From Ostreococcus lucimarinus (lineage: Eukaryota), in the NCBI GenBank assembly GCA_000092065.1, contig CP000595.1: a DNA stretch of 64,000 nt; one strand, written 5' to 3'. Each line of letters begins with the position of its first letter. Position 1 is the stretch's first letter. Shown here in pieces: positions 1,985-63,083 of this stretch. The notes under the pieces are model-generated. The model saw only the letters and a program-made list of their open reading frames with translations. It did no database searches and had not been told where the DNA came from. The translations under genes were made by a program, and so were the position numbers.

Positions 1985-2470
1985 GGTGCGTCCGTCGAGG
2001 CGACGCGAACGCGCGCGGAACGCATCGATGCCCGCGATCGCGCGTCGGCGCGCGGTCGAGCGCGACGGAGAACGACGGCGCGGACGTCGAGCGCGCGCAT
2101 CGATCGCGGGCGTGACCCTAGGCGGCGTCGCGCGCGATTCGCGGGAAGGCATCGCGCGAGGCGTCGACGAGGGGATCGAGCGATCGATGCGTCGGATGCA
2201 GACGAAATGTTCGCGTCGTGCGCGCGTCGTGTCGCGCGCGCGCGCGGGATGCGCGCGATGAGGCGTCGTGACGCGTGTTCGATCGCGTTCGGAAGCCCTA
2301 AGGCGGGAGGACCGGGCGCGACGCGCGGGCGCGCGGACGAACGCGAGCGTCGCGGGGACGCACGGCGCGAGCGAACGTGGAAAATATAATCACTGTTTGC
2401 GTCCGGCGCGCGAACCTTGGACCTCGAACGATGAAACTGACCAGAACGCCTCCTTCCTACGCGCAGATAG
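1985..2470 (+). other. Putative 5'-UTR intron of RPL21 (GTGCGT donor at 1985, ACTGAC branch at about 2436, polypyrimidine tract, acceptor CAGATAG directly before the ATG)
   Basis: tagtag|gtgcgtcc near 1985. gatgaaactgaccagaacgcctccttcctacgcgcagatag|ATG at 2430-2473 follows the same grammar as the coding introns in this window. No transcript evidence. Confidence 0.3.
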
Positions 2471-2977
2471 ATGGGTAACCAACGCGCCCGATCGCGCGGT
2501 TTGCGCCACGGCACCCGCAACTTGTTCTCCCGTGGTCACCGTGAGCATGGTACTTTGAACACGACGACGTACTTGCGTACGTTCCGTGTCGGTGATTACG
2601 TCGACATTAAGGTGAACTCGGCGCAACAAAAGGGTATGCCGTACTTGCAGTACCAAGGCAAGACGGGCATCGTGTGGAACGTGACGCCGCGAGCTGTGGG
2701 TGTGGAGATTAACAAGACCATCGGTGGTCGCATCGCTCGTAAGCGCATTCACGTGCGCGTTGAGCACGTGCAACACTCCCGATGCCGTGAGGATTTCATC
2801 GCCCGTCGTGCGGCGAACGACAAGGCGCACCACGAAGCGAAGTTGGCTGGAAAGAAGATCGTGACCAAGCGTCCGGTCACTGGCGCGCCGCGCACGGGGT
2901 TTGCGCTCGAGAACGTGAAGTCGGAACTCTTGACTCCGATCCCGTACGATATCTTGCGCGAAGGCATGAAGTACTAA
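2471..2977 (+). CDS. RPL21: 60S ribosomal protein L21e
   Basis: 168-aa ORF. MGNQRARSRGLRHGTRNLFSRGHREHG...VGDYVDIKVNSAQQKGMPYLQYQGKTGIVWNV...RIHVRVEHVQHSRCREDF is colinear with eukaryotic L21e. Confidence 0.9.
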   Translation: MGNQRARSRGLRHGTRNLFSRGHREHGTLNTTTYLRTFRVGDYVDIKVNSAQQKGMPYLQYQGKTGIVWNVTPRAVGVEINKTIGGRIARKRIHVRVEHVQHSRCREDFIARRAANDKAHHEAKLAGKKIVTKRPVTGAPRTGFALENVKSELLTPIPYDILREGMKY

Positions 2978-3004
2978 ATCTTAGCATACGAATCGGATTG
3001 GGTT

Positions 3005-3009
3005 TGTAA
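3005..3009 (+). promoter_or_regulatory. TGTAA poly(A)-signal-like motif 28 nt after the RPL21 stop
   Basis: TGTAA is the chlorophyte poly(A) signal. It recurs 20-90 nt downstream of many stops here: ARM-BTB at 11286, SSF1 at 17347, Patched at 43974, DUF726 at 46177 and 46186, SEL1L at 51405, and on the minus strand after S16, UMPK and ALG1. Confidence 0.35.
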
Positions 3010-3102
3010 ACTGTAGGTGAGACCTGCTTAAAAATTTCAAAGCTCCCGTCGCGTCGCTTGGCGTCCTCACTATCACGCTCTCGCGCGTCTCAACGCGTCA
3101 CC

Positions 3103-4314: not shown

Positions 4315-4339
4315 TTTATAACAAACAACAACGACATTA

Positions 4340-5482: not shown

Positions 5483-5545
5483 GTGCGTCGACGACGAGGA
5501 CGAAGGCTCGCGAAGGATGGTCGGCGGCGACGCATGCGCGCACGC

Positions 5546-5575
5546 ATGAATGAATGAATGAATGAATGAATGAAT
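5546..5575. repeat. (ATGA)7 microsatellite inside Cpn10 intron 1
   Basis: atgaatgaatgaatgaatgaatgaatg. Confidence 0.8.
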
Positions 5576-5671
5576 GCGCGCGCGCGCGCGGACATCGACG
5601 ACGGTGGCGGACGAAAAAACAAAGGATGAAAGACTGACGCGGAGAATCGCGCGATGACGACGCGGACGCAG

Positions 5672-5741: not shown

Positions 5742-5871
5742 GTGCGAGACGCGACGCGCGCGCGCGATGAAACGCGAAACGGACGCGAAACGGGACGAAC
5801 AGACGACGGTGACGACGATGACGACGACGATGACTGACGAAGGAATCGATGACGGTTCGGACGAGGCGCAG

Positions 5872-6323: not shown

Positions 6324-9300
6324 ATGACGCGCGAGGAGCGAGGATCGTCGGCGAAGAAGAAGCGTCGAACGTCAACGTCGAGCGCGAAGGGCGAGAGCGG
6401 GGCGACGCTCGACGGACAACGCGAGGCGCGCGCGCTCGGGCCGTGGTCGACGACGGCGCGCGCGCGAGAGGAACGCGCGCGCGCGCGCGCGCACGCGAGC
6501 GCGAGCGCGAGTGGGAAACGAACGAGGGAGGAGGAGGAAAAGGGATCGTTTCGTGGATTATTCGTGGATTGTCGGACGGTGGACGATGACGCGGCGTTCG
6601 AGGCGTGGGAACGGGAGATGCGGGCGGTGGGCGAGGCGCTGCGCGAGTGCCCGTGTACCGAGAAAGACTGGGAGAGCGTGGGGGCGATGGAGAGTGCGCA
6701 AGGCGAAGGCGAAAGTGATGCGTGGGAAAGCGAGAAGATTTGGCTTCATAAGATGTCACGCATCGCGTTCTACGACTCGCAACCGCTGAGCGAGACGAAC
6801 GCGTGGCCGTTCGCTTCGAGAACGAAGAAGGACGCTACAAAGTCGACGGTGGCGCTCTTCAAGGCGAGCGTCTCGGCTTTCATCGCAGCGAAAAATACGC
6901 AGCGACTTGCGGAAGTGGACTGGAAATTACAAGAAAATAAATTAATCAACAGTTGGAAAGAATTGCTTATGACCCACACGCCTCGTCCGGGAGGCTTGGC
7001 AGACGTGTCGTGCGAGTTCAACGTGCACGTCACAGCGCTCGAGCAAGAGTTGGCGAAGAGACAAAATGAAGGTGATAAATCGGATGAATTTGGACGGCGC
7101 ATCAAACACATCAAAATCATGATACAGGTGTTGCAAAGCATAAAGGCGAGCTTCCAGTACTGCGCCACGGCGCTTTATGACACCGTGTTCGCGCCTCTGA
7201 GAGCTTTTTCTTCGGCGTCCATTACGAGTGAAAATTTCGAATCCGGCGTGGAGTTCGTCTCATGGGCCAGTCGCTCGGTGATGATCGCATCCGAACTGTG
7301 CCAAACGAAAGATTCATATCACGTTCGAATGACGCGATACACCAAACACGAGTTTTTGAATTGGTCACGAAAACTTTTGGACTTCTTCTACCACCACCTA
7401 TCGTCCGTGAGAGGTTCGCACATTGTCGAAACACTCGGGTCAGGTAGTGATTGTGCAGAATTAATGCAGCTCATCAAGTGCTTACCCACCATGCGTCTGA
7501 CGCTACCGTGCAAAGGGACTAGCCGGCGTGCCACCTATCTTTCGGACACAAGATTTTCGGACAAATTTCAACGAAAGCTGACACGATTCGCTCTCACGGT
7601 GATCGGTGCTGCAAAGTCTCAACTTTCGCAGCACACACAAACGCACAAATTAGGCAAATTTCTGTTCCCGGAGTGGATCGAGCATCTCGTCGATACCATC
7701 GAGCACAATAAGAGTTACACAGTGAAAGAGCTAGCCCGGGAGATTCTTCTCTCGTTGGATATTGCCAACTTGCTCGCAACTCGTGTAGAAGTGCTCAGCG
7801 TAAAATCTCTCATAAAATTGTCTGACGATGAATTGTCTGTCGACGACGAATTGTCTGTCGACTACGATGACGACGTAAAAGAGCTCAAAGAGTTGTTATC
7901 ATGGCTTCGCTCAATATTAAGCGTGCATCCATCCAAGTTGAGGAACGTGGCTGACTTGGCGAAGGACTTGATTTCCGTCTTTGGATTCTGTCGCCTCCGA
8001 CGCGAAACACATGGTGACAAAGTTCAAAAAAGTGGGCATGATCATAGTTTAGAGTCGGACATATGCAGTATCTTTGCGTGCCTCGCCGTCAGTCGCGATC
8101 ACGACCTTGACGATGAAGAGAAGCTCAAATCTTGTCCGTGTGAGATGGTCAAGTTGAGATCTGAAGACGCGAGAAAAATGATTCAGCAATTGGTGATGCA
8201 TGAAGATCATCTCGACGATGTCGAGGCGGTGATTTTGAATATGCTAACGCTGGATCGAACGAGCATGTCAGCGAGCGATACAACCATCCCTTCCGCTTTG
8301 GCCGCGCTGACTATGTTGGTCCGAAAAAATTGTGTCCTCAGGGAGCGATTTTTCAAATCGGGCGACACCACCAACACGTTGTTGGAGATTCTTGAGTGCA
8401 AGAATGCGAACGTAGCGCGCATCACCAGCGCTTGCATTCTGTCATTCGAAGAGCATCATCGGCTCGTGACTAGTTTGTACAAACCGAACGTGATCACCGA
8501 TAAAAAAGGCGAGCAAGTGACTGAAATATCTGGTTGGGACGTTGACACGATTCGTCAGTCGCTCAGAGCCATCTCTGCGCTCGTCAAAGACTCTACCGTG
8601 TCTTCAATCGGTTTCGATAGCGCCATTTTGGAAGTCATCTGCACTGATAGGCGAATGCTTGTTCTTACGAACAAGATCAAGGCGACGATAGAAAAGAAGA
8701 TTAACAAGAGTATGGATTATCCCAACTCCCGGCTCTGCTTCCCAGAAGCTCTGCTTGAAGAATGGGTGTTCGATCTACTCTGCATGAGAAGCGATCTTCT
8801 CACTCAAATGGCCACTGCGGTCACAAACGGCGGCGGTGACCCGTGGAAAAACTTCAAGCCTAAACATGAAGAGTTCGCGAGTTTCATCAGTCGTGAGTTT
8901 GAAGTCGCGAACACCGACGCGACGATACCACCGGAGGCGCACGCAGAATGGTTTCAAGAGGTCGTGACATTGGTGACAACTGTGCAAGAAAAACTCAAGA
9001 AAGACGAGGAAATCTCCGACGTCTGCAGTATTTTGATGGATGGAGACACCGATGGTCCATCTTCCCGTGTTGGTATCGTAGTCCCCATCTTAACTCTGTT
9101 ACACAAATGTCGCATCTTGCAGGAGCACAATTTGATTTCCGAGCTAGAAGTCGAGGGCATCAGCGATATTGAAAAAGAAGCGTGTTACGTCATCGGCTTA
9201 TTAGCGAGTAAGCAAGGAATTCAAGATCGTATCGCAAGCTCTTTCCTTATCGAAGGCAAGAACGGAATCGAGCAATTAATTCCGCTCTTGCAACGATACC

Positions 9301-11258
9301 AACCCAGTGCGAAAAACGCCGCGAATGCCAGTGTTGCGAGACGCGCATCGGATGCAATCACAAACTTAGCACACGAGAACAGTCGCATTAAAACGATGGT
9401 TCGAAATGCGAATGGCATCCCTCCTCTGGTCAATCTATTGGAATCGCAAGAGAAAAAAGTCCAGAAGGCTGCCGCTAGTGCGCTCAGAACTCTGGCTTTC
9501 AAAAATGGTGAAAATAAAAACCAAATTGTCGAGTGTGGCGCACTTCCGAAGCTCATTTTCATGGCTCGTTCAGAGGACGTAATGATTCACAAAGAAGCAA
9601 TTGGTGTGATTGGAAACTTGGTTCACTCTTCGCCGCACATCAAACGACGCGCCCTCGACGAAGGAGCGCTGCAACCCGTGATTGAATTGCTCAAGTCTCA
9701 GTGTTCCGAAACGCAGCGTGAGGCGGCGTTATTGCTTGGTCAGTTTGCCGCGCGCCTTGAGCCTGCAGCGCCGGGTGATCCAGACTATCGGACAAAAATA
9801 GTCCAGCGTGGAGCTGTAGAGCCGTTGATTAAAATGCTCGGCGGTCAATTTGTCTATCGTGAACCTGGTCTTCGAGAGATGGCAGCCTTTGCCCTCGGTC
9901 GACTTGCGCAACACGGGGATAATCAAGTCGGAATCTGCCATTCGGATGGATTACGGCCGTTGTTGACGTTACTCGAATCAGAGATAGAAGATATCGCCGA
10001 AGGACTTCGTCATCATAGCGCTTCCGGGAAGTCTGATCACGAGATCGATCTAGACGCCAAGCGCTTTGCTGAAAATTTGCAGCACAACGCTGCGTTTGCA
10101 CTCTATGGCCTAGCCGCGCATCAAGACAACGTGCCAAAGATGCTCAAAGAGAACGCCTTCATGCGGTTGAAATTTTCTCATCTCATCGCCGAACAGAGCA
10201 AACAATGTGTGAATAAAACGTTAAAGCGGCTCGAGGACGGAGTCAGCCGCAGAGATGTCTTGACTTATCTCGGTTTCGTCATAAGCACTGGCAAGCCAGT
10301 CGAACGTCAAAGAGTAACGCTCGCTCTGGCTTGGCTAATCAGGAAAGAAAACCAAGACTATCTGAAAGACATGCGCGCGGTTTTCATAGACAAAGGTGGT
10401 CTTGACGTCCTTTCTGGCGCTTTACTTGATACGCCGGCGGAGCCCATAGACTTTTCTGGGCATACGAGTGGTCTCGCCGGTGGCAAACGCATTGTAAACG
10501 TGATAATGGAGGCTCTGAGAGAGATTAAGGACAAGCTGGTGTCACAGGTTGTGGTGGAATCTCACATGATGCCGCCACCCTCGACGCCAACGGCCGAGGA
10601 GCATATGCCAGCGAACTTCAATGACCCCGAGCTTTCAGACGTGACGTTTATTGCTCGGGATGATGAAGGTGAAAAGCGAGAGTTCAATGCGCATAGAATC
10701 GCTTTTACGCACGCCTCTGATGCGTTCTTATCAACGCTCGAAGCGGGTAAAGCTGATGTCGACGTTTATCCCGCCACATACAAGGTTGACCTCGAAGACG
10801 TTTGTTGGAACGTGCTTGAGGCGATGATGGATTTCATTTACACGGGCACTGTCGGACCGATGTCCAGCCTCCGAGACCAGGCGTTTCTCCAGCATAGATG
10901 CGAGGACGTACTCTCCGCCACGACACGCTTCGACCTTCCCGGGCTCAAGTATTTGACCGAAAAACTTTTCATCGATAACGTGAAAATGGATACTTTCACA
11001 TTCGCGAGAACGTGTGCATTGTATCGCGCCGCCGTGGAGCACGACGCCGTGGCGATCCAGGACCACGTGCTGGGCTATGTTCTCGACAACTACGACAAAC
11101 CTTGGATTGACGACGATGTCACGATGAATTGTCTCACTTCATACAAAGCGCGCGTGAAAGACATCGTCGAATGCTTCGGGAAAGGCTTGGTGAAATACCT
11201 TGACAAACTGTTGCGCCGAGAGCGCGTCGCCGTCGTCGCGGACGCGCAAGACGAATGA
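6324..11258 (+). CDS. Large armadillo-repeat plus C-terminal BTB/POZ protein (ARIA/ABAP1-like architecture), 1644 aa; start uncertain
   Basis: ARM-like repeats at 9200-9900 (NGIPPLVNLLESQEKKVQKAAASALRTLAFKNGENKNQIVECGALPKLIFMARSEDVMIHKEAIGVIGNLV...). BTB domain near the C-terminus (DVTFIARDDEGEKREFNAHRIAFTHASDAFLSTLEAG...YKVDLEDVCWNVLEAMMDFIYTG). The body from about 6900 on is about 45-50% GC against about 70% in the flanks. The GC-rich low-complexity N-terminal 190 aa may be UTR. Confidence 0.7.
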   Translation: MTREERGSSAKKKRRTSTSSAKGESGATLDGQREARALGPWSTTARAREERARARAHASASASGKRTREEEEKGSFRGLFVDCRTVDDDAAFEAWEREMRAVGEALRECPCTEKDWESVGAMESAQGEGESDAWESEKIWLHKMSRIAFYDSQPLSETNAWPFASRTKKDATKSTVALFKASVSAFIAAKNTQRLAEVDWKLQENKLINSWKELLMTHTPRPGGLADVSCEFNVHVTALEQELAKRQNEGDKSDEFGRRIKHIKIMIQVLQSIKASFQYCATALYDTVFAPLRAFSSASITSENFESGVEFVSWASRSVMIASELCQTKDSYHVRMTRYTKHEFLNWSRKLLDFFYHHLSSVRGSHIVETLGSGSDCAELMQLIKCLPTMRLTLPCKGTSRRATYLSDTRFSDKFQRKLTRFALTVIGAAKSQLSQHTQTHKLGKFLFPEWIEHLVDTIEHNKSYTVKELAREILLSLDIANLLATRVEVLSVKSLIKLSDDELSVDDELSVDYDDDVKELKELLSWLRSILSVHPSKLRNVADLAKDLISVFGFCRLRRETHGDKVQKSGHDHSLESDICSIFACLAVSRDHDLDDEEKLKSCPCEMVKLRSEDARKMIQQLVMHEDHLDDVEAVILNMLTLDRTSMSASDTTIPSALAALTMLVRKNCVLRERFFKSGDTTNTLLEILECKNANVARITSACILSFEEHHRLVTSLYKPNVITDKKGEQVTEISGWDVDTIRQSLRAISALVKDSTVSSIGFDSAILEVICTDRRMLVLTNKIKATIEKKINKSMDYPNSRLCFPEALLEEWVFDLLCMRSDLLTQMATAVTNGGGDPWKNFKPKHEEFASFISREFEVANTDATIPPEAHAEWFQEVVTLVTTVQEKLKKDEEISDVCSILMDGDTDGPSSRVGIVVPILTLLHKCRILQEHNLISELEVEGISDIEKEACYVIGLLASKQGIQDRIASSFLIEGKNGIEQLIPLLQRYQPSAKNAANASVARRASDAITNLAHENSRIKTMVRNANGIPPLVNLLESQEKKVQKAAASALRTLAFKNGENKNQIVECGALPKLIFMARSEDVMIHKEAIGVIGNLVHSSPHIKRRALDEGALQPVIELLKSQCSETQREAALLLGQFAARLEPAAPGDPDYRTKIVQRGAVEPLIKMLGGQFVYREPGLREMAAFALGRLAQHGDNQVGICHSDGLRPLLTLLESEIEDIAEGLRHHSASGKSDHEIDLDAKRFAENLQHNAAFALYGLAAHQDNVPKMLKENAFMRLKFSHLIAEQSKQCVNKTLKRLEDGVSRRDVLTYLGFVISTGKPVERQRVTLALAWLIRKENQDYLKDMRAVFIDKGGLDVLSGALLDTPAEPIDFSGHTSGLAGGKRIVNVIMEALREIKDKLVSQVVVESHMMPPPSTPTAEEHMPANFNDPELSDVTFIARDDEGEKREFNAHRIAFTHASDAFLSTLEAGKADVDVYPATYKVDLEDVCWNVLEAMMDFIYTGTVGPMSSLRDQAFLQHRCEDVLSATTRFDLPGLKYLTEKLFIDNVKMDTFTFARTCALYRAAVEHDAVAIQDHVLGYVLDNYDKPWIDDDVTMNCLTSYKARVKDIVECFGKGLVKYLDKLLRRERVAVVADAQDE

Positions 11259-11417
11259 TGACAGCATTTGCACGCATCCTAACATTGTAAAACACACACG
11301 AACGATTCATAGTAGTGAATCTAGAACAACGAATTGAAGCAAATACTGCGTCTGATTACACAATTGGACTAAAATAATCTGCCGTCACCGCGCTACCTAA
11401 GGTTCGTCTCGTCCCGC

Positions 11418-11645
11418 TTAAGAAATGATCAGCGCCTTCTTGAGCAAAGCACCCACGGTCTCCGACGGTTGCGCACCCTTGGCGATCCAATCCTTGATCG
11501 CCGGCGCATCCAAAGAGGATTGCTTGCGGATCGGATCGTACCACCCCAACTGTTGGATTGGCAAACCGTCGCGGCGCGCGCGCGAGTCGATGGCGATGAT
11601 GCGATAAAACGGTTCCTTCTTGCGACCCATGCGAGTGAATCGAAT
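11418..11645 (-). CDS. RPS16: Bacterial-type (organellar) ribosomal protein S16, 3' exon; a short 5' exon encoding the first residues is not placed
   Basis: [39 protein letters not shown]...[20 protein letters not shown] matches bS16 ([25 protein letters not shown]...GFYNP...GAQPS). The in-frame codons IRFTR lie upstream of the track's ATG and abut TAG at 11646-11648, which forms an AG acceptor (gatatag|ATT) with an ACTGAC branch 28 nt upstream. Confidence 0.65.
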
Positions 11646-12390
11646 CTATATCGCGTCGTAATCGCGCAAACTCGTCAGTCTCCCGTTCACACTCCCGTTC
11701 ACTCCTCGTTCTCGACTCTCCTTCGCGTCTTTCGCGTTCGAAATCCCCATCCTCGCGTTCGTCTCCCCGAGGTCAAGCCCTGAGGAAATAGGGTTCCTCC
11801 CTCCCTCGCATCTCGCGCGACGTACCGCAACTCTGTTCTCCACGCGCAGCGCCGCGCGAGCGCCCGTGATGGTTCTCTTTTCAACCTATCGTCGCGCGCA
11901 TCCACCGTCCGTCGTCAGTCGTCGCGTTCGCGTCCTCGTCGTCCGCCGTCGCCGCGACCCCACCCATCGTCGACGGCGTCGCGCGATTCGGTCGTCCCGC
12001 GTCCCGCCGTCGCGCTTCGCGCGCCGCCGCGTCGTCGTCGTCGTCTCGACGATTCAATTTTACGCGACGCTCGCGCACCTTGCTCTGCACGCGCGCGCCG
12101 CCGACGAGGGCGGCGCTGAACGTGAACGTGCTCGCGCTCATGACGGACGCGGTGTGCCGCGACGACGCGCGCGGGGGCGCTCGACGCGCGACGGGCTGTT
12201 GGTGGCGTGCGATCGCATCGCGCCCGATGCGCGTCCGTCATGGGATCTCTCGCGCGCGGAATACGCGATCCCGACGCCTGCGCTCAAAAAATGCGAAAAC
12301 GAGACGTCACACGGACCGCGAACCCTCGCGCTCGAGGTCGCGCGATCGCGCTCGACGCGGCCTCTTTCGTCGACGCGCGCGCGACTCACG

Positions 12391-12573: not shown

Positions 12574-12872
12574 GTGCGTGCGCGCGCTCGATGCGATGGG
12601 GAAGAAATGTTTGCGTCGCCCGGGCGCGGGCGGCGGCGATGGGGGTCGACGATGCGCGCGCGACGCGGCGATCGCGCGGTGGTCGAGCGAGGCTAGGGCT
12701 TTTGAGCGCGCGCGCGGGCGACGAGGCGGGGCGCAGGACGTCGAGTGGGGGCGACGAGGCGCGTTTGGGATGGTTAAGGCGCGAAGCGGAGAGATCGCGC
12801 GCGTGGTGCGCGTGATGCGTCGTGCGAACGCGTGTACTGACGAATCGACGCTCGTTTGTTTCCCGCGAATAG

Positions 12873-16127: not shown

Positions 16128-16236
16128 GTGCGGGAAATCGGGGCGAGAGGAGAGGACGCGATCGGGGGAGATGGGGACGCGAGCGCGGCGAGCGAGGAGG
16201 AACGCGCGGACTGACGAGCGACGACGCGCGACGCAG

Positions 16237-17456: not shown

Positions 17457-17465
17457 TTAGGGTTT
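17457..17465. promoter_or_regulatory. Perfect telo-box TTAGGGTTT about 500 bp upstream of ribosomal protein P1
   Basis: gcTTAGGGTTTgag at 17457-17465, between the SSF1 3' end and the RPLP1 start. Confidence 0.4.
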
Positions 17466-17968
17466 GAGCTGGAGTTTTCCTACGAGAGCGCCCGCGCGCG
17501 GTGCGATCGACCTCTTTCGTCGGCTCGATACGCTAAGGCGCGAACACACGCGCGGCTACGAAACAAGCACACACAAGTAAACAAAACGTACGTTCACGCG
17601 CCCGCACGTGCGTCGCGCTGCACGCGTCGCACGCGCGACGCCGAGGCGAAGATCGCGCGCGCGTTGAAAACCCCAAAACGCATCGACGAACGATCTTCGT
17701 CGCGCGCTGGCTCAACGTTCGCGCCCTTCGACGGCGTCGAGCGATGACGATCGTGACGATATATTTCGTTCGCGTTCGTTCGCGCGCGGTGTCGGCGATC
17801 GCGCGTCGCACGGCATAGAAAGCGAGGACGCCGCGACGTCGCTATGGGTGTTCGAACCGCGACGTCGAGGGGGTCATCGAGGTCGACGCGCGAAGGCGGC
17901 GCGCGAGCGATGGGCTTGAGAGAACGAAAGACTGACGAAAGAATGTGTTTCGCTGGAACAGAAATAAA

Positions 17969-18283
17969 ATGTCTGGTGATCTCGCGTGCACGTACGCGGC
18001 TCTCATCCTCCACGATGACGGTCAAGAGGTGACGGCTGACAAGATCAGCGCTGTCGTCTCTGCGAGCGGGTTGGAGCTCGAACCGTACTGGTCCGGTTTG
18101 TTCGCCAAGTTCCTCGAGCAAAAGTCCGTGGGTGACCTCATCTCCAACGTCGGCGCTGGTGGCGGCGGCGGTGGCGGCGGCGGCGCGGCTGCGGGCGGCG
18201 ACGCCGGCGGCGACGCGGCTGCTGCTGCTCCGGAAGAAGAAGAAGAAGAAGAAGCCGAAATGGACTTCGACTTGTTCGATTAA
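17969..18283 (+). CDS. RPLP1: 60S acidic ribosomal protein P1
   Basis: MSGDLACTYAALILHDDGQEVTADKISAVVSASGLELEPYWSGLFAKFL...Gly/Ala hinge...EEEEEEAEMDFDLFD*. Canonical P1, including the C-terminal (M/F)DFDLFD. Confidence 0.85.
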   Translation: MSGDLACTYAALILHDDGQEVTADKISAVVSASGLELEPYWSGLFAKFLEQKSVGDLISNVGAGGGGGGGGGAAAGGDAGGDAAAAAPEEEEEEEAEMDFDLFD

Positions 18284-21189: not shown

Positions 21190-21456
21190 CTACTTACAAT
21201 CATCCCTGTACTCAAACAACCCGCAATCTCCTCCCCAGGGAAACTGCTCGCGATTGCGAATTCTCAGGTACGAGTACGCCGGGTTCTCGTGCCCGTGTCC
21301 GTGCGCCGCGTTGGACAGCGTGTACACCCCGAACCCAGCGCACGCGGGTATGACGAGCATGGAGACGGCGCGCCATTTATTCATCTCCGCTGTTTCATCG
21401 CGTCGATCGCGTTTCAGCGCGTCAGTCGCGCGCGCTCGTCGTTTTCGCGCGCGCAT
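21190..21456 (-). CDS. COX6A: Cytochrome c oxidase subunit 6a (COX6A) homolog
   Basis: WRAVSMLVIPACAGFGVYTLSNAAHGHGHENPAYSYLRIRNREQFPWGGDCGLFE matches COX6A ([57 protein letters not shown]). Start at 21454-21456 (MRARKRRARA presequence) or at 21382-21384. Confidence 0.6.
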   Translation of the reverse strand: MRARKRRARATDALKRDRRDETAEMNKWRAVSMLVIPACAGFGVYTLSNAAHGHGHENPAYSYLRIRNREQFPWGGDCGLFEYRDDCK

Positions 21457-21806
21457 CGTCGTCGCGTCGCGATCGTTCGGTTCGCGCGTTCGTTCGTTCG
21501 CGCGCGCGACGCACCGATCTCTTCCTCGACGCTCGCGCCGGAGCTCATCGAGCGGGCGCGGGAAATTTGTTCGACGCGTTTGGGCGATCGCGCGGCGCGC
21601 GCGACGAGTCGGGCGAGCATGGCGAGCGCGCGTGTGTGCGGGCTGGGGTCGCGCGCGCGCGCGCGGATCCCCGGGTGGGAATCCGAGGTGGGGTGATGGT
21701 ACAAACCTATGACGAGCTATGGGATCTAATGACGACGCGATCGCGACGATCGCGCGAGGGTGAGAGGGAAAGGACACGACGCGTGACCGGGGACGACGGC
21801 GTGGGG

Positions 21807-22523: not shown

Positions 22524-22574
22524 TCGTAACGCGAACAGCGCGGCCCTGGTGCGGAGGAAACGCGCGCGAGTCCG

Positions 22575-22940
22575 TCAGTCAATGTCAATCTTCAAACCGC
22601 GCGCTTCGCCGCGGAGGCCAACACCAAACGCGCGAGGCGAATCCGAATTCATCTTCCACGAGGCAACGCGCTCGCTCGCGCGCTCGCTCGAGAAAATGCA
22701 CTTCACGACGTACTTTGGAACGAATCGCGACGACGAGGAGACGCGCTCGAAGCTCACGTTGGCGACGCCGTCGATTTTCGGCATGGCGATCACGTTGTGC
22801 GCAGCCAGGGCGCCCCAAGCGACGACGCTCGTGATGGTCGCCGTCGTCGTCCACTGCGGTGGAGGCTTGCGTATGCGCAGATCATCGAAATCTATGTCAT
22901 CTTCCTCGAGCTCGGCGCGATCGGGCGCCGCGCGAGGCAT
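22575..22940 (-). CDS. Possible small hypothetical protein, 121 aa, no recognisable family
   Basis: ATG at 22938-22940, normal amino-acid complexity (…WTTTATITSVVAWGALAAHNVIAMPKIDGVANVSFERV…), and a local GC dip. An overlapping plus-strand ORF at 22549..22998 is equally unrecognisable, so coding status is unresolved. Confidence 0.2.
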   Translation of the reverse strand: MPRAAPDRAELEEDDIDFDDLRIRKPPPQWTTTATITSVVAWGALAAHNVIAMPKIDGVANVSFERVSSSSRFVPKYVVKCIFSSERASERVASWKMNSDSPRAFGVGLRGEARGLKIDID

Positions 22941-30232: not shown

Positions 30233-30235
30233 CGC

Positions 30236-43910: not shown

Positions 43911-44026
43911 CCGAGCTCACCGAAATAATCTTATTCTTTCGCATGCTTTCGTGCAATTTGTTCCGTTATCTCCGTGTAAAATCACTCCGACATATAGAAC
44001 GACCTCACCACTCGCGCTCGCTCGAC

Positions 44027-51531: not shown

Positions 51532-51750
51532 ATGTCCGCGCTCTTCGACTTCAAGTCCTTCCTCACCACGCTCCTGCTCTTCATCTGCGCGTGCACGTAC
51601 GTCAAACTTCGCGCGCCCGGGTTGTTGGATTCTCACCGCACCGGGTTTCGAGGTGTTTTCTGGAAAGCCGCGCGCGTGGGCGAGCGTCTATCGCCGTGGG
51701 TCAGCGTCGCGTGCGCGTACATGTCAGTGCAAACGCTGTTCGGGTGGTAG
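51532..51750 (+). CDS. TMEM167: Protein kish (TMEM167), 72 aa
   Basis: MSALFDFKSFLTTLLLFICACTYVKLRAPGLLDSHRTGFRGVFWKAARVGERLSPWVSVACAYMSV matches human TMEM167A ([61 protein letters not shown]) almost residue for residue. Confidence 0.8.
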   Translation: MSALFDFKSFLTTLLLFICACTYVKLRAPGLLDSHRTGFRGVFWKAARVGERLSPWVSVACAYMSVQTLFGW

Positions 51751-51849
51751 TCGTCGAGAGAGGCGGCGCTGAGGCACGCGGGACGGTTGAGCGGGGACGA
51801 GCGGGACGGACGAGCGCGCGCGGAACGACGCGCGGCGAGGCGAAGGACG

Positions 51850-55951: not shown

Positions 55952-57172
55952 ATGTCGAGAACGACGCACGTATGTCTCGCGCTCTCACCGCTCGCGGTGC
56001 GATCGCACGGTCGACACCGCGTGCCGACGGTGCATACCGCGCGCTCGCGCGTCGGGACGCCGCGGCTTTGGCTTCGGGACGCGCGACGTCTCGCCTCGCT
56101 CGCATCGCGCGATGAAGACGACGTCGTTCTCATTGAGTCACAGAACGTGAATGATGAACGTGACGAGAGCGCCGCGCGCGTCGCGGCGACGCCGGTACCG
56201 CCGCGGTGGGATGTCGCCGTCAACGCGGAGACGCTCAAAGAAATCGTAAACTTTGGCTTTGAGCGATTTGGATTTGAAGATGACTCGGATGCGTTGAACG
56301 CTTTGGCGCGGGCGTTGAACTCCAACTGCGACCGCGGTTTAGAAACGATGGGTGACGTGGAAACGAACCGACGCGTATGGGGCGCGAACACGACGCGACC
56401 ATACCCGACAAAGTCGATTTGGGATTTTGCGTTCGAGGCGCTCGAGGACGTCACGTTGCGCGTACTCGTAATCAGCGGTGCGTTGTCGCTCGTGTTGGAA
56501 ACGTCCATCGGGGGCGATGATTCAGAGTATAGTTGGGCGAATGGAGCTGCGATACTTCTCGCGGTGTGCATCATCGTCGTCGTGGAGTGCGTGAACAACA
56601 ACGAAAAACAGAGATCGTTTGTCAATCTCAACGCACGAAGCGAACAGACAAACGTCGCGAGCATTTTACGCGGTGGGAATCGTGAGCTTTTGAGGAAGAG
56701 TGAAGTCGTCGTTGGAGACGTCGTGGAGCTGCAAGCGGGAGACGTTGCACCGTGTGATGGCTTAGTGATCGAGAGTGCGGCGTTTTTGGTCGATCAAAGT
56801 CACATTACCGGCGAGAGCGATGATATTGAAAAGAATCGTCAATCGATAATTTTCGCTGGAAGCAAAGTCACGTCTGGACGCGGATCGATCCTGTCGATCG
56901 GCGTCGGTGAGAATTCGTCTAGTGGACAAATTGCAGAGATGATCAATGTCGGTGCCGAAGAGTTCACGCCGCTGCAGTTGCAACTGCAGGCGCTTGCCGT
57001 CAAAATTGGTCGCTGGGGCATCAGCGCCGCATTGGTCGTCGGTTTCATTTTAAGCTTTACGCTCGTATTTGACGCAATTCAAGGGACTGGTCCGCCCATC
57101 GAGGCGCTCGGTTTGGATTTCTTGCATATCGTCATCATCGCCATCACCATCGTCGTCGTATCGGTGCCCGAG
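55952..57172 (+). CDS. Plasma-membrane-type (PMCA/ACA, P2B) Ca2+-transporting P-type ATPase, exon 1; the gene is join(55952..57172,57483..59438)
   Basis: N-terminal cytosolic domain and TM1-4, colinear with PMCA (…RVWGANTTRPYPTKSIWDFAFEALEDVTLRVLVISGALSLVLE…ITGESD…). Ends ...VVVSVPE|gtgcgtggg, inside the conserved PEGLPLAVT motif. Confidence 0.8.
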
Positions 57173-57221
57173 GTGCGTGGGAAAGCGTTTTTCTTTTTTT
57201 CGTGCTCGAGCGCCGGTGGTG

Positions 57222-57403
57222 TTCTGTGATGATTGAGTAAATTTCTCTGAATTCGTTGACGAAACTACTCTGTCTGCCGACTTCCCTCTGAGAACGCCAC
57301 CGAAAAGCTTTGAGCGCGCGACTTCCATTCATTTCTGTGATGATTGAGTAAAGTTCTCTGAATTCATTGACGAAACTACTCTGTCTGCCGACTTCCCTCT
57401 GAG
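57222..57403. repeat. Tandem duplication (2 x about 71 bp at 111-bp spacing) inside the Ca-ATPase intron; introner-like
   Basis: ttctgtgatgattgagtaaaTttctctgaattcGttgacgaaactactctgtctgccgacttccctctgag at 57222-57292 and again at 57333-57403 with two mismatches. Confidence 0.8.
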
Positions 57404-57482
57404 ATTTGAATGGTCGTGACGCGGATTGACTTTTTCACGCGCAACCTCGACTGACAATACCTCGTTTCCTTTCGCAACACAG

Positions 57483-59438
57483 GGCTTACCACTCGCCGTG
57501 ACGCTCGCTCTGGCATTTTCCGTCAGGCGCATGCTCGAGTTGTCCATGCTCGTCCGCGTCCTAGGCTCCGCCGAAACCACAGGCGAAGTCACGGCTTTGC
57601 TCATCGACAAGACTGGGACGGTGACTGAAAACGACCAACGCGTTAATCGCGCGTGGATCGCGGGTGTAGATATCGGACCTCTAACGAGCAAAAGCGTGAC
57701 GTGGGCGAGTGAAATTGCAAACAAGACGCGAAACGAGCCAACGCTCGATCCTCGCGTGGTGAAACTCCTGTCGATTTTGCTCGCAATGAACTCGACCATA
57801 ACCTACGATGCCAAAGGGCAAATTTTGCGAGGAGCAAAGGCGGAAATCGCGCTGTTACGATTCGTTAACTCAATGAACAACGACGAATTGTTCGTCGCTA
57901 CGATTCGTAAGTACTTCCCTTTGGTCAAGCTCTTTCCATTCAACACTTCCAGAAAGCGCATGTGCACGCTCTTCACACTTCGCGACGGCATCAACGACGA
58001 CGAAATGGGAGACGTGATCGTTCGTGCGGTCACGAAGGGCGCATCTCAAGACATGTTGAACTTGTGTTCATCTGTCATGGACGAAAACGGCGCCCATCAT
58101 CCACTCGACGCCGCTACGAAGGATCAGCTGTCGAAAAAGTTTCTCGAATGGCAAGATGACGCGGAAAGGGTATTACTCGTCGCGTATAAGGACATCGAAC
58201 GCGATCTCATCACAACGCATGAAGCGACGAATATTTGCAGTCGAATGAGCGCCAGCGACGCTGAATCCGACCTCACGCTCGTCGCAGCAATCGGGATGTG
58301 CGACCCTTTGAGGCCAGAATCCACGAAGAGCGTGCGTTTATGTCGCCGCTCTGGCGTCGCAGTGAAGATGGTCACTGGGGATTCGTTGTCCACCGCTACC
58401 GCGGTGGCAAGGAGATGCGGAATACTCGATGAAAAAGACATGAGCACCGAAGCAACGATGACGGGTGAAGCGTTTCGAGAAGCAATTCGTGGAGAAGAGG
58501 GTCAAGAAATCGATCAATCGAAACTCGATGCCATTTGGCCGAATTTGCGAGTGCTCGCTCGCGCGTCGCCACAAGACAAATTCATCCTTACCGATGGTAT
58601 ACGCAACACAAAGCTATCGGGACGAAAAGAAGTTGTAGGGGTTGTAGGCGACGGCACAAACGACGCGCCCGCACTTCGACGCGCCAATGTCGGTTTCGCT
58701 TTAGGCTCGGGGACGGAGTGCGCCAGAGATGCAAGCGATATTGTTCTTCTGCAGGACGATTTTTCTTCCGTCGTCGACGCCATTCGTTACGGCAGGAACG
58801 TGTTTGAATCAATCGAAAAGTTTATCACGTTCCAACTGACGGCGAATTGTACGACAATCATTCTGTCCACCGGCTGCGCACTTGTGTATGCGAAGAGCCC
58901 GCTGAACGCCATCGAGCTATTGTTTGTCAATCTTGTCATCGATTCGTTGGCAAGCTTAGCGCTCGCGACGGATGAGCCGAGCGACGACGTGATGCGACAG
59001 CCTCCGTCAGATGCGAGCAACCTCATCACGTCAACCATGCGGCTCAATATCTTCACCCAAGTTTCGTATCAGCTCGCCGTCATGGCGTACTTGCTCAACG
59101 AATTCGGCCCGGAAGACACCCAAATCTACTGTTGCTTCGTCTTGCTTCAGCTCGCGAATCAAATCAACTGTCGCAAAGTTACCACGGAGGTCAACGTTTT
59201 CAAGGGTGCGACGAAGAACAAGCTCTTCGTGAGCCTCTTGACGAGCGAGATTTTGCTCCATGTCGCCATCGTGCAAGCGGGCGGCGCGGTGTTTCACACC
59301 TCTCCGCTCAATGCGGGAGAGTGGCTGCGATGCACCGCGTTCGCGCTCGGGGCGATTCCTCTGCGCGCATTGTTCGTGACATTTTTTGTTTCACTCTTCG
59401 CCGCGTTTCGGGAAGAGGACGCGTTGCACCATCACTAG
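57483..59438 (+). CDS. PMCA-type Ca2+-ATPase exon 2
   Basis: Acceptor caacacag|GGCTTACCACTCGCCGTGACG with a GACTGAC branch at 57450. GLPLAVTLALAFS, DKTGTVTEN (phosphorylation site), VGDGTNDAPALRRANVGFALG (hinge), and C-terminal TM7-10. Confidence 0.8.
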   Translation, partial: GLPLAVTLALAFSVRRMLELSMLVRVLGSAETTGEVTALLIDKTGTVTENDQRVNRAWIAGVDIGPLTSKSVTWASEIANKTRNEPTLDPRVVKLLSILLAMNSTITYDAKGQILRGAKAEIALLRFVNSMNNDELFVATIRKYFPLVKLFPFNTSRKRMCTLFTLRDGINDDEMGDVIVRAVTKGASQDMLNLCSSVMDENGAHHPLDAATKDQLSKKFLEWQDDAERVLLVAYKDIERDLITTHEATNICSRMSASDAESDLTLVAAIGMCDPLRPESTKSVRLCRRSGVAVKMVTGDSLSTATAVARRCGILDEKDMSTEATMTGEAFREAIRGEEGQEIDQSKLDAIWPNLRVLARASPQDKFILTDGIRNTKLSGRKEVVGVVGDGTNDAPALRRANVGFALGSGTECARDASDIVLLQDDFSSVVDAIRYGRNVFESIEKFITFQLTANCTTIILSTGCALVYAKSPLNAIELLFVNLVIDSLASLALATDEPSDDVMRQPPSDASNLITSTMRLNIFTQVSYQLAVMAYLLNEFGPEDTQIYCCFVLLQLANQINCRKVTTEVNVFKGATKNKLFVSLLTSEILLHVAIVQAGGAVFHTSPLNAGEWLRCTAFALGAIPLRALFVTFFVSLFAAFREEDALHHH

Positions 59439-59462
59439 AATTTTTAGATTACATCAGAACTT

Positions 59463-60785
59463 TCACGCCGCGTCGGCGAACACAGGTAACGCACAGCGCT
59501 TCCAATGATCGTCCCACGTTTGCTCTCCCCATTTCGCCGCGCCGTGTTTCAACGCTCTGAGCGTGAGGCGTTCGTCGCCACGGAGAAGTTTCGCGAACAT
59601 CGCCGCGAGTTCGGTGGCGTCGGCAAAGAGCACGCCGTTGACGCCCTCTTGCACGAGCTCTCCGATGACAGCGTACCGCATCGCGGCGACGGGTAACGAT
59701 GCCCCAAACATATCCACAATTTTCATCGGTAAATCTAAACCGCTGCTCGAGGTGTGCAGGGAGACGCCCAGGTGCGCGTTCGCGAGCGCGCGCGGATAGT
59801 CAGCGGCGTCGAGCCAGACGGTTCGAAACGCCACGTGCTCGAGCGCGAGTTCGTTAATCTTCTTCTCGTACATCGTCTTTCGTGGGCCTTGACCGGTGAT
59901 AATTATGACGATGTCAGGGTACGACTTTGACGCATGATCGCCCTTCGCGCGCTTGCGCGCGTCGTACGCGACGGCGGCGTCAAGCAAAACGCCAAAGTCT
60001 TCATCCGGCGTCCACGACGTCGAACTCACGATGAACCTCGGCTTATTCTTCGTCATATTCTCGTGCGTGCCCCGCAAAAACCGATCGAGCGCGTCCTCAC
60101 TCCGCGCGACGGGCGAAGCCTCCAGCGCCGAGCGCGCGGGTTCGCTTCTCCAAAATTCCAACGGCGTCGTCGCCTCGCGCGCCGCCTCTCGAAATCGCTC
60201 CGCCGCGCGGTCTTCCACGACGCGCGCGCCCTCAATCTTCCATTCTTTCTCCAAAAAGTTTCCCATCGCCTTCGTCACGCACACGTGCGCGTCTCCCCAC
60301 ATCTTTCCCTGCGTCCGTTCGTACCATTTCAACATTCGCGTCGTCGCGCTCGCGTCGCCGCGCTTCATCCCGAACAGCGTGTACGCGAAATTATGCCAGT
60401 CCACCACCAACCGCGTCCGTCGCGCGCGACACACGATTCCGCACACCAAAAACGTCGGCACGCACGGCGGGTTCTGTATCAGCATCTCTTCGCACCGCTG
60501 CATCGTCATCAGGATCCAAAACAAGTGCGCGCACTGCGCCGCGACGCGCGTCCCGAGCGCGAGCGCGAGCGGGACGCGCGTCAACCACCGCCACCGACAT
60601 CCCACGACGTAACGCATCGTCACCGCGTCTTCGCGAGACAGCGCATCGATCGGAGGCGTGCCCGAGTAACACACGACGTCGACGGCGCGATCCGCGTCGC
60701 GCGCGAGCGACAGCGCGTGGTATTGCATTCGAGGCGAACGACCAAAGTCGCCCAAAACCACGAGCGCGGTGCGTCGTTTCGTCAT
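59463..60785 (-). CDS. ALG1: ALG1 chitobiosyldiphosphodolichol beta-1,4-mannosyltransferase
   Basis: ALVVLGDFGRSPRMQYHALSLA is the ALG1 hallmark. GVSLHTSSSGLDLPMKIVDMFGASLPV is the GT1 C-domain. ATG at 60783-60785. The stop is only 25 bp from the convergent Ca-ATPase stop. Confidence 0.85.
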   Translation of the reverse strand: MTKRRTALVVLGDFGRSPRMQYHALSLARDADRAVDVVCYSGTPPIDALSREDAVTMRYVVGCRWRWLTRVPLALALGTRVAAQCAHLFWILMTMQRCEEMLIQNPPCVPTFLVCGIVCRARRTRLVVDWHNFAYTLFGMKRGDASATTRMLKWYERTQGKMWGDAHVCVTKAMGNFLEKEWKIEGARVVEDRAAERFREAAREATTPLEFWRSEPARSALEASPVARSEDALDRFLRGTHENMTKNKPRFIVSSTSWTPDEDFGVLLDAAVAYDARKRAKGDHASKSYPDIVIIITGQGPRKTMYEKKINELALEHVAFRTVWLDAADYPRALANAHLGVSLHTSSSGLDLPMKIVDMFGASLPVAAMRYAVIGELVQEGVNGVLFADATELAAMFAKLLRGDERLTLRALKHGAAKWGEQTWDDHWKRCALPVFADAA

Positions 60786-60951: not shown

Positions 60952-61764
60952 TCATCGACGGGCGAACTTACCCTTACCGCGTCCGCCGCCGCGTCCGCCG
61001 CCGCGTCCGCCGCCGCGTCCGCCGCGACGGGCGTCTCGCGCGTCTTCAAATTTGGCCTCCTTGGCGTTCGCCTTGCGCTTGGACCCTGGCAACGCGTCGC
61101 TGTCGTCGCTGCTGTCGTCGCTGCTATCGTCGTCCGACGCATCGTCGGATTCAGATTCTTCTTCGTCTGAATCGTCCTGTTCGGAATCCTCGCTCTCGCT
61201 CTCGCTCTCGCTCTCGCTCTCGTCTTCGCCTTCGTCTTCGTCTTCGTCGCTCGCCTCGGCTCGTCTCGCCGCCGCCGCCGCCTTCGCCATCGCCTTCGCC
61301 TTCACCATCATGTCCTCCTCACCGTCGCTCTCACTCTCGCTATCATCGCTCTCGCCGTCTTCTTCGCCGTTACTTTCGCTGTTCTCTTCGCTCTCATCGC
61401 TCGAATCGTCGCCGCCGAGCGACGCCGTCGTCGCCTCGACCCGCCCCGTGAGGCACACCTCCGCCTCGCGTCCGTTGTGCGACACCACCACTCGTTCGCC
61501 GTCGCCGAAGCACAGCCCGGAGCCTCCGATGGCGAACTGTTCGCGTCCGGGCGCGTCGCTCACGCTGCCGAGCGCGATGGCGTCGGTTTTCCCGTCGCCG
61601 CCGCCACCTCTGGTCGCGACTTGGACGGTGATTCTTTCGTCTTTACTCGCGCGTTTCGGGCCCTCGCACGTCAGGGCGACGTGGGTGAGGACGACCATGG
61701 ACCCGCGCGACGGGGTGAAGGCGCGGCCGGCGCCGGCGGGGACGCGGAGTTGGAAGAGTTCCAT
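60952..61764 (-). CDS. Nucleoplasmin-like-domain acidic nucleolar-type protein (plant HD2/HDT-like N-domain, Asp/Glu/Ser-rich middle, C-terminal RGG box)
   Basis: MELFQLRVPAGAGRAFTPSRGSMVVLTHVALTCEG...ITVQVAT...IALGSVS...VVVSHNG parallels HD2 MEFWGVEVK...LHLSQAALGE...VLLSVKV...LVLGTLS...FELSH. It is followed by (ESES/DD)n and then GRGGGRGGGRGGGRGKGK. Confidence 0.5.
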   Translation of the reverse strand: MELFQLRVPAGAGRAFTPSRGSMVVLTHVALTCEGPKRASKDERITVQVATRGGGGDGKTDAIALGSVSDAPGREQFAIGGSGLCFGDGERVVVSHNGREAEVCLTGRVEATTASLGGDDSSDESEENSESNGEEDGESDDSESESDGEEDMMVKAKAMAKAAAAARRAEASDEDEDEGEDESESESESESEDSEQDDSDEEESESDDASDDDSSDDSSDDSDALPGSKRKANAKEAKFEDARDARRGGRGGGRGGGRGGGRGKGKFARR

Positions 61765-61820
61765 CGCGGCGGCGTGTGCGGCGCGAGGGCGAGCGCGAGG
61801 CGGAGACGCGCGTTACATAA

Positions 61821-62839
61821 TTATGCAAATTTAGTGCGCGCGACGGCGCCGGCGAGGAAGGCGGCGACGACGGTGGCGATGCGCTTGATTTTATCGTCTT
61901 TGCCCGCGCGTTTGGACGATGAGGCGTCGATGGCGTAACGCATGGACCATTGGACGCCGTACGCGTCGAGCATGACGGCTTGCGTGAGACGAAACAAGTC
62001 GCGGGCGGCTTCTTTTTCGTTTTTGAAGATGCTCACCGACTCCACGGAGACGCCGAGGGGAACTTTGGATTGTTTCGTTTCGGCGATGATGCGCTCGCAC
62101 ATGGCGACGAGGATTTCCACGGACTTTTGCGCCGGGTTGTCGGCGCCGAGAATTTCGGCTTCGACGGCTTCCGGGACGGAGCACCCGAGCCACTTGATGA
62201 ATTTCATCGTTTTTTCGCGCCCACACGGGGCAAACGTGAGCACGATGCGCTTGGGTTGGATCCCCCGCCTCTCACACTCCGCACCGTAATCGTTCACGAG
62301 CTTGATCGTCATATCAGCGTCGTAAATGGCTTGAGAAATAAACCACTCCGCGCCCGCATCCGTCTTGGCGCACAGCGTCTCGTGCTCGTTTCCCTTCTTC
62401 GCGTGTCTCTCCGCGATCGTCACCCCACCGAACGCGCATCCCCTCTTAGTCTTCCTCAACATTTCCGCCGCGCGCTGAATCGTCGGTCCGGCGTACTCCT
62501 GACTCGAACTCGCGCCTCCGACGAGATTATACGCGCTCGTCTCTCGCGTGGCTTCGTCGAGCCACGACTGAAATTCGCCCTCGCTCTTCGTCTCCGCCAC
62601 GCACTTGTACACCACGCTCTCCGTCCCACCGCTCGCCTTTCGCAGCGCCGCGGCGAACGCGCCCGGATCATCGAGCTTTCGAAACGGAAACGGTCTCGCG
62701 TCCGCCGTGCGTCCGGCTTCTTCTTGAATATCGTACACGATGTACCCGTCGCACGCCAACCCGCGCGACTTTTGCACAAAGTTATCCGCCGCGTCCGCGA
62801 TGGCGTCCGCGGACGATCCTTCCAGCGGCGGCGTCACCC
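61821..62839 (-). CDS. Methylenetetrahydrofolate-reductase-like (MetF/MTHFR-fold) protein, exon 2; the gene is complement(join(61821..62839,63032..63083))
   Basis: TIM-barrel-like blocks colinear with MetF (...GGVTIAERHAKKGNEHETLCAKTDAGAEWFISQAIYDADMTIKLVNDYGAECERRGIQPKRIVLTFAPCG...). The track start at 62837 is GTG. Acceptor cag at 62840-62842 with an ACTGAC branch at 62870-62875 (minus strand). Confidence 0.45.
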
Positions 62840-63031
62840 CTGACGGCGCGAGCGCGCGTGGCGATGCGCGTCAGTCGCCGCGACGCGCGTTTCGCGTTTC
62901 GCGGTCGATCGCGCCGATGTCGAACGTCGACGCGCGTCCCGCGCGCGGTTGAAAAAGTGATCATCCACGGCGGCGACGCGAATCGCGTCGCGCTTCGCGA
63001 GCGGCGCGACGCGACGGCGAGCGCGACGCAC

Positions 63032-63083
63032 CGAACAGGAACACGGGTCGCGAGGTGTCTTTTAAGGCGTCGACGAGGGTCAT
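63032..63083 (-). CDS. MTHFR-like protein exon 1 (MTLVDALKDTSRPVFLF + G, phase 1)
   Basis: ATG at 63081-63083. Ends TTCG|gtgcgtcgcg (GTGCGT donor at 63031-63026). Splices to GG|GTGACGCCG, giving ...VFLFGVTPPLEG, which resembles the MetF N-terminal FSFEFFPP strand. Confidence 0.4.

Follow-up and report, generated by a model that had tools for sequence, protein, structure and literature searches.

Do the introns of a compact algal genome obey a single set of splice signals, and are these signals those of ordinary splicing? The question is raised by a 64,000-nucleotide stretch of Ostreococcus lucimarinus DNA (contig CP000595.1 of assembly GCA_000092065.1), which is referred to below as the window. 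An earlier note, made from the letters alone, had proposed that introns in at least seven of its genes share a GTGCG(T/G) donor and an ACTGAC branch motif lying 25-40 nt before a YAG acceptor. We confirmed this observation, with minor corrections to the coordinates and to the donor rule. Twelve introns were placed in 10 of roughly 42 genes, and ACTGAC precedes the YAG acceptor in every one of them, so that the common signals extend to 10 genes. These are almost certainly the ordinary canonical, major-type (U2-type, GT-AG) spliceosomal introns of O. lucimarinus, of the class found outside its outlier chromosome.

Splice signals of the twelve introns

The window has a GC content of about 60% (range 0.49-0.71) and consists mostly of single-exon eukaryotic genes, tightly packed. 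Ten of the introns interrupt coding sequence and two lie in 5′ leaders (RPL21 and RPLP1). They are listed below with phase, donor, branch motif and acceptor; a slash outside brackets marks the exon-intron boundary.

1986..2470, plus strand: probable 5′-leader intron of RPL21; tag/GTGCGT, branch AACTGACC at 2436, acceptor CAG at 2466 (likelier) or TAG at 2470, the latter abutting the ATG at 2471.
5483..5671, plus strand: Cpn10 intron 1; phase 0, GTGCGT, GACTGACG, CAG.
5742..5871, plus strand: Cpn10 intron 2; phase 1, GTGCGA, GACTGACG, CAG.
11886..12078, minus strand: S16 intron A, in the transit-peptide region of a chloroplast-type S16; phase 0, aag/GTGCGC, GACTGACG, TAG.
11646..11825, minus strand: S16 intron B; phase 0, GTACGT, GACTGACG, TAG.
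12574..12872, plus strand: RPS21e intron; phase 0, aag/GTGCGT, TACTGACG, TAG.
16128..16236, plus strand: SSF1/Brix intron; phase 0, aag/GTGCGG, GACTGACG, CAG.
17608..17961, plus strand: probable 5′-leader intron of RPLP1 (ribosomal protein P1, coding sequence 17969-18283); GTGCGT, GACTGACG, CAG 7 nt before the ATG.
21390..21514, minus strand: COX6a intron; phase 1, tcg/GTGCGT, GACTGACG, CAG.
22546..22713, minus strand: intron of a 321-aa membrane protein (coding sequence 21807-22940); phase 2, aaa/GTACGT, GACTGACG, CAG.
57173..57482, plus strand: P-type Ca-ATPase intron, splitting PE/GLP and holding two box C/D small nucleolar RNA (snoRNA)-like units; phase 0, gag/GTGCGT, GACTGACA, CAG.
62840..63031, minus strand: MTHFR-like intron; phase 1, tcg/GTGCGT, GACTGACG, CAG.

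The introns are 109-481 nt long, with a GC content of 0.58-0.72 except in the Ca-ATPase snoRNA host (0.47). The donors comprise seven GTGCGT, two GTACGT and one each of GTGCGG, GTGCGA and GTGCGC. All 12 fit GT[GA]CGN, which is a better statement of the consensus than GTGCG(T/G): the latter describes eight donors and misses four. The ACTGAC motif is found in its extended form GACTGACG in 9 of the 12 introns. In all of them the distance between the branch A and the 3′ splice site is 22-34 nt, and the acceptor is in every case the first YAG past about 10 nt from the branch.

The coding introns on the original list all carry the claimed signals where they had been placed, namely those of RPS21, SSF1, Ca-ATPase and the MTHFR-like gene, both Cpn10 introns, and the S16 intron that had been cited by its acceptor at 11646. 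Two of them depart from the T/G donor rule, since the second Cpn10 donor is GTGCGA and that of the S16 intron is GTACGT. For the RPL21 leader, which had been given as 1985..2470, the signals are present, but the donor G is at 1986 and the acceptor is one of the two listed above. Four introns were added (S16 intron A, the RPLP1 leader, COX6a and the membrane protein), the last three of which were exposed by inspecting all 21 ACTGAC sites of the window. For the membrane protein, a GTGAGC at 22757 was also considered as the donor and rejected: it is out of frame, and a transcript-like contig uses GTACGT.

Neither hexamer is enriched over the window as a whole (GTGCGK, 119 copies against 130 expected; ACTGAC, 21 against 19.7). 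What distinguishes ACTGAC is its position. Twelve of the 21 copies fall within the sense-strand introns, which total 2,730 nt and make up 2.1% of the strand-specific sequence, a density 61-fold that found elsewhere; for GACTGACG, 9 of 11 copies are intronic, a 206-fold density excess. By comparison, true donors account for 8 of the 119 GTGCGK copies. A scan of the window for the joint grammar, as the earlier note had proposed, returned 9 matches against a mean of 3.4 in composition-matched first-order Markov simulations, of which 1 in 200 reached 9. At least one of the matches, 51688-52557 on the minus strand, looks spurious. Because chance matches are not zero, a motif scan has a real false-positive rate and should be anchored on the branch motif instead of the donor. 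Anchoring on ACTGAC does expose further introns, but the donor hexamer alone is useless in this GC-rich DNA.

In sense coding sequence, ACTGAC occurs once (at 58835) in 52 kb, against 4.9 copies expected under within-gene codon shuffling (P ~0.04), whereas antisense copies are as numerous as expected (7 against 5.8). GTGCGT shows no avoidance in the coding sequence of the window. The scarcity of exonic ACTGAC may reflect avoidance of cryptic branch sites; the effect is too weak to be claimed from one window.

Junctions and their conservation in other Ostreococcus lineages

Splicing at the placed junctions restores the frame for all 10 coding introns and yields recognizable proteins. The Cpn10 product can be aligned over its whole length to mitochondrial Hsp10/GroES, with a one-residue gap adjoining junction 1. 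Alignments run ungapped over the junction for RPS21 (to eS21), S16 (to chloroplast bS16, intron B junction), SSF1 (to human PPAN/yeast Ssf1) and the MTHFR-like protein (to structure 3ijd_A), and the junction is gap-free in the alignment of COX6a to plant COX6a; the targets in these five cases were PDB homologues. The Ca-ATPase splice rebuilds the invariant PEGLP motif. Moreover, four spliced models are exactly the deposited proteins of strain CCE9901: RPS21 (XP_001421604.1), SSF1/Brix (XP_001421605.1), the membrane protein (XP_001421756.1) and the MTHFR-like protein (XP_001421767.1). The products of the unspliced coding sequences of RPL21 (XP_001421600.1) and RPLP1 (XP_001421606.1) are residue-identical to CCE9901 proteins as well, and all six deposited proteins come from one 468,366-bp record. 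The signals had been offered as the best clue to the organism, a Mamiellales picoalga, and these six identities bear this out.

Excision is documented by public contigs that lack the introns. Contig L012, 100% identical, is without S16 introns A and B, which are cut out exactly; the COX6a intron is missing from L013-L015 (99.5-100% identical), the membrane-protein intron from L021 (100% identical) and the MTHFR-like intron from L022 (99.6-99.8% identical). Exact absence of an intron at 99.5-100% identity means that such contigs can come only from spliced RNA. Same-species contigs thus place the GT...AG boundaries of five introns (S16 A, S16 B, COX6a, membrane protein and MTHFR-like). Intron-less contigs from a related species (L016-L020) break at the RPS21 junction, and L020 also lacks S16 intron B. 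The two Cpn10 introns, the SSF1 and Ca-ATPase introns and both leader introns rest on homology, annotation or conservation.

The orthologous loci compared were those of O. tauri (L023), an O. mediterraneus-like contig (L010), a fourth lineage (L008) and a relative of 75% identity (L001). Cpn10, S16 and RPS21 were covered in O. tauri, L008 and L010, the RPL21 leader in L008 and L010, the Ca-ATPase in L001, and SSF1, the RPLP1 leader, COX6a and the membrane protein in O. tauri alone, where the orthologous region is on chromosome 16 (CAID01000016.2). The DNA of these lineages is about 71-75% identical. Syntenic introns stand at the same codon positions; their lengths differ and their interiors are largely unalignable, with the signals kept. 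This is the case for Cpn10 intron 1 in L008, L010 and O. tauri, which differs there in both length and sequence. Cpn10 intron 2 has the donor GTGCGT in L008 and O. tauri and GTGCGC in L010. S16 intron A is kept in L008 (GTACGT) and L010 (GTGCGT), and the GTACGT donor of S16 intron B recurs in L008, L010 and O. tauri. In O. tauri the SSF1 intron occupies the same site, is 89 nt long and has GTGCGT and GACTGACG; the COX6a gene range measures 436 nt there and gives a 101-aa product, the signals being the same, and the membrane-protein orthologue has the donor GTGCGT. The RPS21 intron is more variable, with GTGCGA/ACTGAC in L008, GTAAGA/ACTAAC in L010 and GTACGT/ACTGAT in O. tauri. In L001 the Ca-ATPase intron has the same position, the donor GTAAGT and the branch GAGACTGACG.

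The two leader introns are the weakest of the set, and we regard them as probable by cross-species conservation alone. In three lineages the RPL21 leader has a GTGCG[T/A/C] donor about -485 to -500 from the ATG, and an ACTGAC or ACTAAC branch (ACTAAC in L010) about 30 nt before a CAG abutting the ATG. In the two lineages other than O. lucimarinus this donor is GTGCGA or GTGCGC and stands some 490-500 nt before the ATG. The RPLP1 leader layout recurs in O. tauri, with GTACGC at -434, GACTGACG at -45 and CAG 8 nt before the ATG.

Several points weigh against a uniform grammar of ordinary introns. The predicted spliced leader junctions of RPL21 and of RPLP1 each gave no match in metagenome contigs, in a search that had no positive control. 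Contig L013 keeps the membrane-protein intron while lacking that of COX6a. Orthologous introns sometimes carry GTAAGA, GTAAGT, ACTAAC or ACTGAT. The evidence is also partly circular, in that the RPLP1 leader, COX6a and membrane-protein introns were first found via the motif; those of COX6a and the membrane protein were later confirmed independently of it, and the RPLP1 leader is backed by its conservation in O. tauri alone. Finally, an intron search that took no account of the branch motif and relied on coding potential to either side yielded nothing convincing in the window beyond three known introns (both Cpn10 introns and SSF1), the remainder being spurious joins of neighbouring genes; its demand for 30 clean codons per flank left it with low power. 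Across the genus, as read from these orthologous sequences, the grammar is strongly preferred but not obligatory.

Some observations on individual loci can be added. Contig L013 (Logan SRR28326253, 7.8 kb, aligned to 26622-20980) spans six genes on both strands unbroken, which suggests overlapping or read-through transcripts, or a mixture of pre-mRNA and mRNA, in this compact genome. The COX6a model deposited at NCBI, a member of the same 90% cluster, has 77 aa, against 101 aa for the transcript-supported product and likewise for O. tauri. For the spliced S16 of 116 aa the sole exact match was in a JGI contig, with none to an NCBI protein. The deposited O. lucimarinus annotation seems incomplete at 21190-21620 and 11418-12141, both on the minus strand. 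Cpn10 intron 1 contains a (GAAT)n microsatellite followed by a (CG)n run (5540-5575, plus strand) and measures 188, 189 or 193 nt among same-species metagenome contigs, with donor and branch unchanged. The RPL21e protein (2471-2974), whose nearest matches are metagenome proteins, clusters at 93% identity with Ostreococcus mediterraneus, 75% with Bathycoccus prasinos and 74% with Micromonas commoda. Elsewhere the genes of the window include those for TPR, ARM/BTB, XPG, SART-1, HDAC, PsbP, RCC1, Patched-like and P-type ATPase proteins. GC dips to 0.49-0.55, against about 0.62 elsewhere, at 8001-12000, 42001-44000 and 56001-60000, which coincide with the ARM/BTB, Patched-like and Ca-ATPase genes.

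Canonical introns and the alternatives

The GTGCGT/ACTGAC grammar is already known, having been published in 2008 and 2013, and the window provides a correct independent rediscovery of it; the expected match to a strong Mamiellales consensus is borne out by the published signals of both O. lucimarinus (PMC2483917) and Micromonas (PMC3879977). Irimia and Roy (2008, PLoS Genet, PMC2483917) reported ACTGAC in 87.2%, and GACTGACG in 66.5%, of the O. lucimarinus introns outside chromosome 2 that were confirmed by expressed sequence tags, with a 5′ splice site of the "atypical consensus GTGCGTG". Organism, donor, branch motif and intron-poor genome are the same here, and the proportions are 87% published against 12 of 12. 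The window adds local detail and no substantive difference: one third of donors off GTGCG(T/G), the 22-34 nt spacing and the two leader introns. The canonical introns of Micromonas RCC299 and CCMP1545 are likewise singletons in regions of normal GC, with AG/GTGCGT and NCTGAC (Verhelst et al. 2013, PMC3879977), but their branch lies 43-52 bp before the acceptor (PMC3879977). Donors of GYGCGY type together with an unchanged U1 have been described for Mamiellales (bioRxiv 10.1101/2022.06.08.495308). The introns of the window share the GTGCGT(G)-type donor and the branch motif of this canonical class, and they are singletons, with only short low-complexity matches among the 12; beyond the five excised in same-species contigs, related-species contigs document excision for RPS21 and S16 B. 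The six identities to CCE9901 proteins and a GC content mostly near 0.6 place the window in the nuclear genome of a member of the Mamiellophyceae, outside the low-GC outlier region. That its record is not chromosome 2 we infer from the density of genes, the type of intron and the orthology to O. tauri chromosome 16.

Hemiascomycete yeasts present a similar picture, being intron-poor, with near-invariant donors and branches and with introns that are 5′-biased and concentrated in ribosomal-protein genes. Their words are GTATGT/TACTAAC and not GTGCGT/ACTGAC, and the convergence is independent. In the window, introns are found in all four ribosomal-protein genes as well as in SSF1, Cpn10 and COX6a, among others, which agrees with the intron excess in highly expressed O. 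lucimarinus genes described by Lanier et al. (2008).

Could the shared motifs be short GC-rich words that recur by chance in DNA of 60% GC, and the introns mere gaps between unrelated open reading frames? The absence of window-wide over-representation of either hexamer would fit, as would the roughly 3.4 full grammar matches that chance provides per 64 kb. Chance does not explain why ACTGAC is concentrated in so small a part of the sequence and always at the same short distance from an acceptor, nor why splicing restores frames and homology, reproduces RefSeq proteins and is mirrored in intron-less contigs. The junction, transcript and conservation evidence already refutes this explanation, to which we give practically no credence. 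Descent from a mobile family is a more specific proposal: the introns would be copies of an introner element such as IE-C of Micromonas RCC299, with signals alike by common descent, and IE-C does carry the same extended branch motif GACTGACG (PMC3879977). It is, however, a repeated family of about 67 nt, whereas the introns of the window are 109-481 nt long and have no common sequence beyond their signals; an all-against-all comparison within the window revealed no family, all matches being short, CG-rich and of low complexity. Orthologous introns at the same sites in lineages of about 71-75% identity indicate old singletons, and an introner origin is exceedingly improbable.

The remaining alternatives concern the splicing machinery. 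Irimia and Roy raised the idea of a separate spliceosome, since a single genome here contains introns of two classes (PMC2483917). In such a system U1 and U2 would have been altered to fit GUGCGU and ACUGAC, and splicing would be distinct from that of chromosome 2. A U1 search identified a candidate in five Mamiellales species, one in each, and always with the standard pairing region (bioRxiv 10.1101/2022.06.08.495308); a standard U1 despite the +4 mismatch of GUGCGU implies no compensatory U1 change. At orthologous introns, moreover, sister lineages interchange ACTGAC with ACTAAC and use GTGCGT, GTACGT or GTAAGT as the donor, which argues for one tolerant machinery. ACUGAC in any case already suits the universal branch-binding box of U2 with one G-U wobble. 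We therefore consider a separate or co-evolved spliceosome very unlikely. Still less can be said for U12-type introns or for those of the outlier chromosome ("BOC1"), which recommend themselves only in that both classes have unusual splice signals. None of the 12 introns has an [AG]TATCCTT donor or a TCCTTAAC branch 10-15 nt from the acceptor, as U12-type introns would. BOC1 introns are 40-65 nt long, AT-rich and devoid of a branch motif (PMC3879977), in contrast to introns of 109-481 nt with 58-72% GC (snoRNA host excepted) and ACTGAC throughout. The probability of either class is negligible.

For ordinary major-type introns, the mechanism would be as follows; the U1, U2 and U6 pairings and the choice of the branch A are inferred from general splicing knowledge. 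In an intron-poor genome, the surviving introns carry near-invariant signals. The 5′ splice site reads G/GT[G/A]CG[T>G,A,C], mostly followed by C/G and then G, and the +4 C of GUGCGU is tolerated rather than compensated. The branch (G)ACTGAC(G) would pair with the GUAGUA box of U2 small nuclear RNA (snRNA), the G of ACTGAC standing for the yeast A as a G-U wobble and the second A, bulged out, acting as the branch nucleophile. The 3′ splice site is the YAG met first once some 20 nt or more have been passed beyond the branch, here at 22-34 nt from the branch A. An Rfam scan found no snRNA gene in the window, and at gathering thresholds it returned no matches there at all.

Intron contents and the use of the signals

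The Ca-ATPase intron holds two tandem box C/D snoRNA-like units, at 57218-57298 and 57329-57409 on the plus strand, which are 97% identical over 72 nt; its low GC content (0.47) is due to them. Each unit runs TGATGA ... CTGA ... TTGACGA, followed by the guide CTGTCTGCCGACTTCCCT and CTGA, and unit 1 has a 7-bp terminal stem. Both units are also present in the orthologous intron of L001 (about 9650-9900 of that contig). The guide complements AGGGAAGTCGGCA, a stretch present in a Candida 25S rDNA primer, which makes large-subunit ribosomal RNA its likely target. In a relaxed Rfam scan, 24 of 25 weak matches were to C/D-box families, the best being snoU83B at 22.6 bits, below its gathering score. 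The probable orthologue of these units is Ot-CDsno112, a C/D snoRNA of 73 nt encoded in an intron of an O. tauri cation-ATPase gene on chromosome 16.

Two further motifs accompany the ribosomal-protein genes.

2294-2300, plus strand: telo-box-like copy in the RPL21 leader intron.
11789-11795, minus strand: telo-box-like copy in S16 intron B.
12694-12700, minus strand: telo-box-like copy in the RPS21 intron.
17458-17464, minus strand: telo-box-like copy some 50 nt upstream of the start-site motif at RPLP1.
1952-1958, plus strand: CTCTTTC just upstream of the RPL21 leader donor.
12362-12368, plus strand: CTCTTTC just upstream of the RPS21 ATG.
17512-17518, plus strand: CTCTTTC just upstream of the RPLP1 leader exon.

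The telo-box-like word ARCCCTA occurs seven times in the window against 1.9 expected, a count reached in 0 of 100 shuffles. Of the seven, four belong to the ribosomal-protein genes, one within or next to each of the four, and the S16 copy is kept in L008. Telo-boxes act in promoter-proximal regulation in Arabidopsis. CTCTTTC, which is extended to CCTCTTTCGTCG at RPS21 and RPLP1, is weakly enriched over the window (14 against 8.7 expected). From its positions it looks like a transcription-start or terminal oligopyrimidine (TOP)-like element common to the cytosolic ribosomal-protein genes. The snoRNA-like units in the Ca-ATPase intron, the telo-boxes at the four ribosomal-protein genes and CTCTTTC at the cytosolic ones led us to a tentative and rather doubtful idea, namely that the few introns kept may persist for a functional cargo and not just for strong signals, those of the ribosomal-protein genes being promoter-proximal regulatory modules. 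We have not met this role in the Mamiellales literature, in which no search aimed at it was made.

The splice grammar identifies the source lineage from raw sequence and brings no new biology. Its value is practical: a rule that starts from the branch motif picks up introns which escape prokaryote-style gene callers on metagenome contigs and which are perhaps mis-modelled in deposited annotation. O. lucimarinus abounds in marine metagenomes, and exact copies of its RPL21 are found in 720 blocks of a public metagenome collection. Because of this abundance, the simple rule of ACTGAC, 20-35 nt and the first YAG could rescue split genes in many assemblies.

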